Made by a program: the position numbers and the translations under genes
Notes under the pieces: generated by a model
Seen by the model: only the letters and a program-made list of their open reading frames with translations
What the model was told of the DNA's origin: nothing
The model's database searches: none
Shown: positions 1,641-4,112 of the stretch, piece after piece
How the letters are laid out: every line of letters starts with the position of its first letter
Numbering within the stretch: position 1 is the first letter of the stretch
Virus record (IMG/VR): IMGVR_UViG_2778261276_000007
Reading direction: 5' to 3' (one strand)
DNA from: a virus
Lineage: Duplodnaviria > Heunggongvirae > Uroviricota > Caudoviricetes
Length of the DNA stretch: 5,114 bases

Positions 1641-4112
1641 TTAAGAATCAGCCTGACTCGGGATCAGTTTTTGCCAGATAACTGAAACGTATTTTGCCAG
1701 GTAACGGGCGTCATCAAGTGCATTATGGCGCTCACCTTCGAATGGAATAGCCGTTCTGGCATCGAAGTCTATGGCTTTCCCCAGCTCAACGATTGTGCGT
1801 ACATCGCGATCGTTGTAGTAACGCCACGGGCAGGGGATCCCCTGCCGTTCGTATGAACGGCGCAAAATCGTGTTGTCGAAGTTGGCTCCATTTCCCCAAA
1901 CCTGAACAAAAAATTCACCGGAGTTTTCGTCGATAAATTCTCGCAATTGTAACAGTGCATCATCTAACGGGATTTCATCGGTCATAATGGCAGATTGCGC
2001 TTCGCGTGATTGCTTAAGCCACCATTTAATGGTGTCCCGATCAATGACTCCGCCAGCAGTTTCCAGATCGATAGTCTTACTAAATTCCGGTCCCATATCT
2101 CCGGTTTGCGGATCGAAAAATATTGCACCTATTGAGATGATCGGGGCATCAGGATTTTTTCCCATGGTTTCAAGGTCGATCATTAGATGGTCACACGTCC
2201 TGCTGGTGGATGTGATTTCGTGATGACCGTTCACCTTAATTGGGTGATCTGCCGTCTCGCCAGTTTCATTATCGCTATTGTGATGCTGATTGCCGCCAGT
2301 GTTCTCCTTGTGTGGATGTTCAGCGCCTTCCATTTCCTCCGGATCATCTTCCTGAACTTCAACCTGATACTCTTCATCGAATGTTTCTTGGTATGTTGCG
2401 TCGCCCATCACCGCGCCACAATCAGGGCAGTTGCCGCCGCCGGTCTGACCGCAGGCGGTGCAGACTTTTTCCACTTCCTGTTGCGCTACTGGTTCAGGCT
2501 GTTTCGTTTCTGGCTCGTTTTGTAACGCATTTGGACTGTTTTGTTCCGCTTTTTGGTAGTTCCGTTCCGATTCATGCTGGTTCTGGTTCACAGAATCGCG
2601 GGTCTGGAGCCCCTTAACCCATTTCGGATCATTCGGGTCACTAATCCCTTCAACAAATTCACCACGTGATGCAGCAAGCAACTTATCGGCGTCAGGCTGG
2701 CTGATATTGGCTGCCTGCATAATTTTGTTTACTTCGTCAGCGGTAACTTTTATCGGCTCTGGTTGTTCTGAATCTTCAGCGGTATCTACATTTTGCGGTA
2801 AGCCCGTGTATGTGCCATTTTTTCGGGCAAAATATTCTTCTTTTGTGATTTCAGTGGCGCCAGCAGCCAGTGCCTTATCCAGACCAGAGAGTTTGTTTGC
2901 GCGACCGTATTTTTCTCCGTCCTTATCTGCGAAGAGGAAATAGAACGGCCCCTCACGCTCTACAGATGGTTCAGCTTCCGGCGCGGTTTCATTTTTTGGG
3001 ATATCAGATACCTCAGTTTCCACTGCATCAGTTTGTGTTTCTGATGACTGGAGAACATCAACAGTGCCCAGGTCTGTTTCTTCATTCTCAAACACGCCCT
3101 TTGTCGTCAGGTATTCGCAGATATATTTGTTCAGTGCTACGGGATCTTTGTGAATGTCGATCGGACGCTCACGGACAAGGCCAAAAATAGTTTGGCGGTC
3201 GTAGCGAAGGGCATCAGGCTGTTTGCGCATTGATGCCGAGATACGCTTCCAGTCTTCGCGGTCGTTGTCGATAACTTCTTTTTTTGCCCAGCGATGGATG
3301 CTGCCGTCAATGTTTCCGGCATCCACATCACTAGGCCAGAGAGCGTAGGCCAGTTCGTCATCCAGTGTTTTCCATGTCTGCTTGTATTCGCGATGAATGG
3401 CAGCAATGACCGGGCTGATTTTTCCTGTTGAATTTTCAGTGTACTGTTGATTGGCTCTGGCGCGGGCGAGATCAACAACAGACGTGTATTTTCCGGTTTC
3501 CTTGCGTTCACCTTCGCGACGTTTTTTCCAGATGCGCATCTCTGCCTGAATTTCGGGCCATTTAGCACCAGGAATACATTTATGCTTAACCCACCCAATG
3601 GCGTGCAACTTAAGCTCCGGATACATGGCGTTAACTTCTGGCATTTTCATCAACGCTTCAACGATATGTCCGTCGAATGTTGCCATGTCTTCCTGCAACA
3701 ATTCCTGTGCGCTAATAACCATATCAACGGTGATGTTTTCACATGTGTCGAACTTAACCATGACAGCGTTCTGTACTTCAGGGGCCAGCTTGTCAAAAGT
3801 GACGTTCATCGGATCGGATTCAGTCTCAACCGGGACAAAAGAAGCAGACTCCTCATCCCAGCGGTTTTCCTGCATATATTCAGCATCCCATGAATCGAGG
3901 GCAGGGCGGGGTATGCCAGGTTTATCCTCGCAGACAATAAATTTATAAGCGCAGTCCTGAGCAGCCGGATAATGTTCCAGGAATTGCCAGTGAAATTTTG
4001 CTCGAGCACGGCGTTCGTCGCCAGCTTCAATGGCTGTGGCTACAGCCACAGCGCCTTCTTCCCTTGTTGCCAGTTCGTCAGGAATAGCGGCGCAAATAAA
4101 GACTTTACTCAT
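1641..4112 (-). CDS. Large prophage early-region protein (823 aa) with C-terminal DnaQ-like DEDDh 3'-5' exonuclease domain; of the type often annotated exodeoxyribonuclease VIII-like; N-terminus resembles K-12 Qin YdfE
   Basis: Minus-strand ORF open from 4148 (TTG) but first ATGs are at 4127 and 4112; the ATG at 4112 ([13 protein letters not shown]...) has SD-like GAGGT 8 nt upstream. Stop TAA at 1641-1643. C-terminal 180 aa (about 1644-2183) carries exonuclease motifs MIDLETMG (Exo I), [12 protein letters not shown] (Exo II) and [13 protein letters not shown] (Exo III). A CxxC-x9-CxxC zinc-ribbon-like element ([16 protein letters not shown], about 2415-2462) and acidic/His-rich linkers precede it. 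Confidence 0.85.
   Translation of the reverse strand: [823 protein letters not shown]

Follow-up and report, generated by a model that had tools for sequence, protein, structure and literature searches.

A RecE/YdfE scaffold joined to a DEDDh-type exonuclease domain, without recT, in a Qin-type lambdoid prophage of Escherichia coli

Linear-linear recombineering makes wide use of full-length RecE, the exonuclease VIII of the Rac prophage, and a 2023 review described the N-terminal domain of RecE as being of unknown function (PMC11611040). DnaQ-like nucleases have been reported in the recombination (Rec) modules of lambdoid phages, with sporadic examples near int not being counted as Rec-module genes (PMC12315714, 2025). 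The structure of phage T4 DexA has also been solved, and its stand-alone Escherichia coli homologue EcD (HAK9828821.1) is reported to degrade 5-hydroxymethylcytosine (5hmC) DNA and to protect against T4 (PMC12153337, 2025). Here we analyse a full-length ydfE gene in a 5,114-nucleotide stretch of viral DNA (IMG/VR record IMGVR_UViG_2778261276_000007; the whole stretch is referred to below as the window), the left-hand end of an E. coli lambdoid prophage of the Qin type that is inserted adjoining rspB. The gene itself is a common one, with annotation and catalogued domains already in place: the Prokaryotic Genome Annotation Pipeline (PGAP) names it 'exonuclease' or '3′-5′ exoribonuclease', one 90%-identity cluster of relatives alone holds 23,183 sequences, and the PhiR42_1 phage genome record, deposited as complete, carries it at 99.9% identity. 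The new element is a RecE scaffold with an exchanged nuclease of opposite polarity and without RecT. We found no description in the literature of such a RecE-scaffold/DEDDh chimera, of its breakpoint or of its link to recT, and the literature on ydfE and Rv2179c yielded no functional study of YdfE.

The coding sequence lies within a single unbroken minus-strand open frame at 1641–4148, in which an ATG at 4112, with a GAGG nine bases to its 5′ side, gives a protein of 823 amino acids. From upstream of dicB through ydfE codons 1–255 (window 3346–4665) the DNA is 100% identical to that of K-12, where ydfE (b1577) is a Qin prophage pseudogene cut by IS2E after codon 255 and truncated at codon 256. 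Given this identity within the first 255 codons and upstream of them, the 823-amino-acid gene is the intact allele of K-12 ydfE. An initial annotation made from the sequence alone had placed the gene and its three catalytic motifs correctly; it had treated the N-terminal domain as uncharacterised, a description now superseded by this identity and by the assignment of the N-terminal part to Pfam YdfE_N (PF27430) and YdfE_C (PF27432), obtained through precomputed domains on 86–100% identical homologues. The parts of the gene, from the C-terminal end of the protein to its N-terminus, are as follows.

1641..4112, minus strand: YdfE/exonuclease coding sequence, 823 amino acids plus stop, intact K-12 ydfE allele
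1644..2192, minus strand: DEDDh 3′-5′ exonuclease cassette (Rv2179c-like, DexA-like), residues 641–823, from Pfam, PDB sequence search and alignments
1710-1712, 1725-1727, 1875-1877, 2169-2171 and 2175-2177, minus strand: predicted catalytic residues D801, H796, D746, E648 and D646, respectively, from the DexA alignment
2193..2387, minus strand: acidic, His-rich linker, predicted to be disordered, residues 576–640, from composition and a predicted local distance difference test (pLDDT) score <50
2245..2246, minus strand: mosaic breakpoint, codon 622/623, from blastn and protein alignment A1
2418..2462, minus strand: putative zinc ribbon CxxC-x7-CxxC, residues 551–565; Rac RecE counterpart CNACGQTGGDNCPDC
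2598..2705, minus strand: conserved motif, residues 470–505, nearly identical in Rac RecE
2808..2960, minus strand: small beta-beta-alpha-beta-alpha domain, residues 385–435, pLDDT 85–96
3078..3395, minus strand: helical middle domain, residues 240–345, pLDDT 83–98
3438..4112, minus strand: YdfE_N-type N-terminal alpha/beta and helical domain, residues 1–225

Several observations identify the C-terminal domain. First, Pfam PF16473 (Rv2179c-like) covers residues 642–813, matching profile positions 2–177 of 177 with E = 3e-66 and a score of 222.9 bits against a cut-off of 27. Secondly, T4 DexA (entry 8kel) is the only solved structure matched in a PDB sequence search, and D646, E648, D746, H796 and D801, which lie in the motifs DLETMG (646–651), NGANFD (741–746) and HNALDDARY (796–804), pair with DexA D7, E9, D119, H186 and D191 in a MAFFT alignment. 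These five residues are invariant across T4 DexA and nine prophage homologues (alignment A8), and are invariant or at least 90% conserved in ten fusion proteins (alignment A4). Thirdly, Pfam detects no PD-(D/E)XK domain in the window protein, while the Rac RecE control scores PF12684 at 4e-28. The domain was matched by the DEDD profile, and no full-length match to RecE with a lambda-Exo-like fold was obtained, which bears out the earlier proposal of a DnaQ/DEDDh-type domain rather than one of the lambda-Exo/RecE type. The AlphaFold2 model has a pLDDT of only about 40–60 in this domain, because just 10 of the 64 alignment rows cover it, and its best Foldseek matches in the PDB are to the DEDDh nuclease 3′hExo at E 0.19–0.4; with a domain model of such low confidence, the fold assignment rests on sequence.

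Two departures from the common sequence are noted among the cassettes. One DEDDh-fusion representative (P0221 in alignment A4) has a lysine at the Exo I glutamate and an alanine at the Exo II aspartate, and judged by these substitutions may be a catalytically dead derivative. The window protein itself ends in ...LIPSQADS (residues 817–823, nt 1644–1664), compared with ...LIPNQADF in most close homologues, whose final Phe might matter, for example as a tail that binds a partner.

The remainder of the protein is related to RecE, although not to its catalytic part. Residues 262–627 align with Rac RecE 278–592 at 39% identity (BLASTP, E 2e-61), with no BLASTP alignment beyond RecE residue 592, and the NCBIfam model for exodeoxyribonuclease VIII (NF007259) is matched over model positions 271–600 only, with 281.6 bits against an equivalog cut-off of 1269. 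The RecE N-terminal Exonuc_VIII domain (PF06630), present in Rac RecE, has no match in the window protein. The closest similarity is between residues ~470 and 622, where the conserved motif, the Cys4 ribbon and the acidic His-rich linker are nearly identical to those of Rac RecE, the linker aligning with RecE 541–588 and remaining RecE-like up to residue 622. The ribbon and linker had been put forward as marks of difference from RecE, and in the BLASTP alignment they prove to be the most RecE-like part of the protein; the cysteine motif, moreover, is CxxC-x7-CxxC and not CxxC-x9-CxxC as first described. All four ribbon cysteines are retained in 119/120 close homologues, with variable residues between them, and the Cys4 motif occurs in none of 64 more distant relatives, so that by its sequence signature it is confined to the E. 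coli lineage; AlphaFold2 confidence is low at the putative ribbon. The model contains three confident folded units (residues 1–224, 240–345 and 385–435) separated by disordered acidic segments, and none of these has a convincing likeness among solved or viral predicted structures. The helical middle domain aligns with Rac RecE from RecE residue 278 onwards and is found in most of 64 diverse relatives irrespective of their N- or C-terminal type. The domain at residues 385–435 belongs to the YdfE lineage, has matches among scaffold relatives and is missing from Rac RecE, where it falls in a gap (alignment A1).

The position at which the RecE-like and DexA-like parts meet can be defined to the base. 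A hybrid locus encoding a YdfE_N/PD-(D/E)XK protein shares 92.7% DNA identity with the window from upstream of dicB to nt 2246, where the similarity ends abruptly, and homology to K-12 recE (78% at the DNA level) stops at the same base. In the proteins, divergence sets in directly after ETGE(T/V)AD at residue 622, and past the breakpoint the window resembles only stand-alone phage genes of ~185 amino acids, to which the cassette is 55–59% identical over its full length (e.g. epsilon34 gp34). Conversely, proteins of 900 amino acids (P0001–P0009 and P0111) are 89–97% identical to the window protein over residues 1–640 and end in the RecE PD-(D/E)XK domain; the P0111 locus has the order dicB, ydfD, hybrid gene, recT, lar, xis, int and lies at the Rac attachment site.

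The exchange has taken place more than once, as seen from an exhaustive search for relatives of residues 1–375, which returned 172 cluster representatives at 50% identity. Among the 64 long representatives (the window protein included) 26 have PF06630, 15 a PD-(D/E)XK domain and 10 a DEDDh domain, the remainder having no nuclease domain recognised by Pfam, and all four combinations of the two N-terminal types (YdfE_N and Exonuc_VIII) with the two nuclease types occur. Phage 813R8, for example, has a RecE-type front with PF06630 that is 58% identical to Rac RecE 50–591, and a ribbon, linker and DEDDh half that is 97–98% identical to the window protein, with 98% for the DEDDh domain. Scaffold relatives of 600–800 amino acids in which Pfam recognises no nuclease include P0126, P0130, P0131, P0140, P0150, P0157 and others, a group that may match the 'RecE-2' proteins of PMC12315714.

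Only the PD-(D/E)XK versions are found together with recT. Among viral contigs, recT is present at 78 of 80 Rac-type recE loci, both exceptions being cut by contig ends, and at none of 80 window-type DEDDh loci, although the latter are mostly near-identical copies and not independent events. A sample of one genome per species contains 22 fused DEDDh proteins of 641–851 amino acids, in Escherichia, Klebsiella, Kluyvera, Citrobacter, Enterobacter, Dryocola, Buttiauxella, Atlantibacter and other genera, with xis and int nearly always following directly. Within 8 kb of these 22 loci there is no RecT, Red-beta, Rad52-like single-strand annealing protein (SSAP) or single-stranded DNA-binding protein (SSB); these four were the search seeds, with Erf and Sak4 not among them. 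The commonest families among the 126 neighbouring genes are integrase, excisionase and an Rrf2-like regulator, and the 25 commonest of the 39 families matched include no annealase or SSAP family. The window likewise has no annealase gene and no recT between the exonuclease gene and xis, in agreement with the initial annotation, which had also recognised ydfD and dicB upstream; no annealase is annotated in the complete PhiR42_1 genome record. The unit that is exchanged is the PD-(D/E)XK domain together with recT on the one hand and the DEDDh domain alone on the other. With a DEDDh catalytic domain and no recT or bet gene, the window protein is not a classical RecE, as had been suspected.

Outside Escherichia (L012–L039) an Rrf2-family winged-helix protein of 113–127 amino acids replaces dicB/ydfD directly upstream of the fused exonuclease. 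Of the 126 genes neighbouring the 22 loci, 14 match Rrf2, and in the two cases scanned singly (L013:6684-7052 and L034:5601-5939) the gene is directly upstream.

In epsilon34 the gene for the stand-alone homologue, gp34, is wedged between ssb and abc2 and has a Rad52-family annealase (gp36, by Pfam) next to it. Pfam counts for the neighbours of stand-alone cassettes in 17 genomes are uninformative, most neighbours having no family, so the placing of stand-alone copies in Rec modules depends on epsilon34 and on PMC12315714. Phages without a Rec module have been described as rich in Chi sites (PMC12315714), and reliance on RecBCD and Chi was considered and dropped: the 48.7-kb genome of PhiR42_1 contains just 6 Chi sites, no striking excess. 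The exonuclease gene contains a single Chi octamer, GCTGGTGG, at window 2202 (plus strand).

The remaining features of the window surround the gene; the genes among them, except the methyltransferase fragment, are on the minus strand.

2-1297, minus strand: int, downstream neighbour
1317-1568, minus strand: xis, directly following the exonuclease stop codon
4205-4396, minus strand: ydfD, upstream operon neighbour, from Pfam DUF1482 and the annotation of relatives
4393-4581, minus strand: dicB, upstream operon neighbour, from Pfam DicB and the annotation of relatives
4662-4852, plus strand: internal piece of a class I S-adenosylmethionine-dependent methyltransferase gene, with a junction at 4662-4665
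~4834-5114: IS2 end with the 3′ part of insD (4851-5114, minus strand), sitting in the methyltransferase remnant

The exonuclease gene is at the distal end of the repressor-controlled dicB operon. No minus-strand promoter-like site of its own is present between ydfD and the ATG, and a promoter or terminator dedicated to the gene was rejected as a candidate, the counts being no higher than in shuffled sequence. Expression is not expected in a lysogen, since the gene is distal in a repressed operon and has no promoter-like site of its own. The window prophage has also suffered a deletion of ~3.8 kb, because dicB here adjoins the methyltransferase piece, and in intact relatives (PhiR42_1 and strain CFS3246) the methyltransferase gene is ~3.8 kb from dicB. 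Gone with this segment are dicF, ydfA/B/C, dicA (cI), dicC (cro), a ydaT-like gene, an O-like replication gene and DUF977; the dicB-ydfD-exonuclease operon of the window has lost its DicA-controlled promoter, and the prophage its immunity region. The DicF small RNA lies ~175 bp upstream of dicB in K-12; the window is homologous to K-12 only as far as 84 bp to the 5′ side of the dicB ATG, DicF is absent at 4582–4850 (minus strand), and Rfam finds nothing anywhere in the window. In K-12 the IS2 copy interrupts ydfE; in CFS3246 it adjoins int, and in strain H2 it lies in DUF977. With sites that differ from strain to strain, the same prophage has evidently been an IS2 target more than once.

What is observed directly is the architecture, the junction at codon 622/623, the conservation of the catalytic residues, the recurrent swap and the strict absence of recT. 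The reading of these observations that we prefer, with a probability of roughly 60%, is that the protein is a polarity-swapped, RecT-independent nuclease built on the RecE/YdfE scaffold and acting on DNA 3′ ends. Full-length YdfE is a modular protein of the early left operon of a Qin-type lambdoid prophage, in which ~620 residues (the YdfE_N domain, the helical middle domain, the small beta/alpha domain, the conserved motif, the Cys4 ribbon and the acidic disordered linker) form a non-catalytic scaffold that from residue 262 onwards is homologous to the N-terminal part of RecE. At codon 622/623 this scaffold joins a complete DexA/Rv2179c-type cassette standing in place of the PD-(D/E)XK 5′-3′ nuclease of RecE. 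The cassette is predicted to remove nucleotides from 3′-OH ends by two-metal catalysis with H796 as general base, and by analogy with T4 DexA its substrate would be DNA, with single-stranded tails preferred over duplex ends; DNA is chosen over RNA because DexA and EcD act on DNA (PMC12153337). The scaffold would tether or target the enzyme in a manner independent of nuclease polarity, working with a nuclease of either polarity or with none, and the protein would act in lytic development as a RecT-independent 3′-end processor and not as one half of an exonuclease/annealase pair.

A different interpretation of the same modularity is that the scaffold is an autonomous targeting or host-interaction module with interchangeable effectors (PD-(D/E)XK plus RecT, DEDDh, or none), possibly binding DNA ends, and that the DEDDh form is a delivered conflict nuclease and not a recombination enzyme. 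Such a protein would destroy competing, perhaps modified, phage DNA or remove 3′-ended nucleic acids needed by host defences. We regard this as speculative and unlikely, and note that if it were true it would provide the first functional handle on the ~600 N-terminal residues of RecE.

The protein might instead serve in exclusion or defence as a nuclease of the 'HREX' type, degrading 5hmC-containing T-even DNA selectively and so protecting the lysogen or the induced cell. Plasmid-borne EcD is reported to digest the T4 genome while leaving unmodified duplex DNA alone, and to give protection against T4, and bacterial DexA homologues are reported to be concentrated in Escherichia, Citrobacter and Klebsiella (PMC12153337), genera in which the cassette is also found here; the catalytic residues, too, are common to the cassette and the DexA/EcD type. 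However, the residues to which that paper attributes 5hmC recognition are not kept, DexA W152 being replaced by Y766 and D169 by A780 in the MAFFT alignment (indels near D169 make the second position uncertain); most other prophage homologues have Trp at the W152 position (alignment A8). D90, the tetramer-forming aspartate of DexA that is lost in EcD, is retained as D718, and S87 is replaced by P715. In addition, expression is not anticipated in a lysogen given the distal position of the gene in the dicB operon, PADLOC returns only a weak generic match to a Cas-associated DEDDh nuclease, and EcD is short and stand-alone, so that the 620-residue RecE scaffold would be left unexplained. An EcD-like exclusion role is thus possible but not favoured, and we consider it quite unlikely. 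On the role in anti-defence or nucleic-acid processing suggested in the initial annotation the analysis speaks neither for nor against, the one experimental lead being the 5hmC-DNA activity reported for EcD.

RNA, a hidden annealase and gene decay are less likely explanations. An RNA-directed exonuclease might trim or degrade transcripts, small RNAs or oligoribonucleotide signals, possibly in anti-defence; the best-matching Pfam model centres on the M. tuberculosis exoribonuclease Rv2179c, and PGAP calls many copies '3′-5′ exoribonuclease'. However, the only solved relatives found by sequence, and the characterised phage and E. coli relatives, are the DNA exonucleases DexA and EcD; the nuclease that the cassette supplants on this DNA-recombination scaffold acts on DNA, the epsilon34 stand-alone homologue of the cassette is between ssb and abc2 near a Rad52-family annealase, and no anti-defence family was matched. 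Activity on RNA therefore seems improbable. We judge it equally improbable that the protein is half of a two-component recombinase whose unrecognised annealase is the product of another phage gene or of the host, or is part of the scaffold itself. The gene does take the place of recE in the early left operon, homologues that stand alone are found inside true Rec modules (in epsilon34 with a Rad52-like SSAP, SSB, DEDDh and Abc2; PMC12315714), and the recombination behaviour of full-length RecE differs from that of its nuclease domain alone (review PMC11611040); set against this is the neighbourhood of the fused genes described above.

Finally, that the gene is a decaying, functionless remnant of a cryptic prophage is very improbable: the K-12 copy is indeed a pseudogene cut by IS2 and the window prophage lacks its immunity region and promoter, but the 823-amino-acid frame is uninterrupted in the window and in every relative examined, conservation of the catalytic residues extends across genera, dN/dS (the ratio of nonsynonymous to synonymous substitution rates) stays under 1 for all domains in the informative comparisons (0.18–0.37 in every segment, the cassette value of 0.37 being at dS 0.70 in the one sufficiently diverged comparison), and the gene is carried by a phage genome deposited as complete and by the 23,183 sequences of its cluster. 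Decay is therefore largely refuted for the family as a whole, and may hold for expression of the window copy.

These findings concern RecE as much as YdfE. The function of the scaffold cannot depend on 5′-3′ resection or on RecT loading, because nature joins it to an exonuclease of the other polarity in the absence of RecT, and in many cases to no recognisable nuclease, and natural chimeras that differ only downstream of codon 622 offer the basis for clean experiments. The analysis also corrects the annotation of many copies that are called 'exodeoxyribonuclease VIII' or 'exoribonuclease', and ties a prophage gene that is very abundant in E. coli to the DexA/EcD exonucleases, themselves a recent discovery. 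Should the protein be merely a redundant end-trimming nuclease, the interest would be more local, for specialists in phage recombination.

How YdfE stands relative to known systems can be seen by comparing it with each in turn. The lambda Exo-Bet and RecE-RecT pairs have an adjacent annealing-protein gene, unlike the window gene. Rv2179c of M. tuberculosis, the founder of PF16473, belongs to the same Pfam family as the cassette, and is a stand-alone cellular exoribonuclease; the PDB search returned no sequence-level match to it. T4 DexA (8kel) and EcD are of the same DEDDh type, with the five catalytic residues aligned and a WW-x-x-QS motif in common, but DexA is only ~26% identical to the cassette and has extra loops missing from it, and the window cassette is fused to a 620-residue scaffold. 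The stand-alone lambdoid DnaQ-like nucleases (epsilon34 gp34; PMC12315714) are in the same Pfam family (E 2e-73) but are free-standing proteins of ~185 amino acids beside an annealase, whereas the window cassette is fused in frame with no annealase nearby. RecE of Rac (K-12 b1350) has the same position in the early left operon, between a kil/dicB-type gene and xis-int, and is homologous over RecE 278–592, with the helical middle domain, the ...KWVKG motif, Cys4 ribbon and acidic linker among the shared features; it differs in having a PD-(D/E)XK 5′-3′ nuclease (PF12684, PDB 3h4r) where the window protein has a DEDDh 3′-5′ domain, in its PF06630 N-terminus in place of YdfE_N, and in the recT that follows recE and not the window gene. 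The closest relationship of all is with K-12 YdfE (b1577), which is the same gene at the same chromosomal site by rspB, with an identical dicB-ydfD region and 255 identical codons; the K-12 copy is truncated by IS2E and is without linker, ribbon or nuclease, whereas that of the window encodes the full 823 amino acids.

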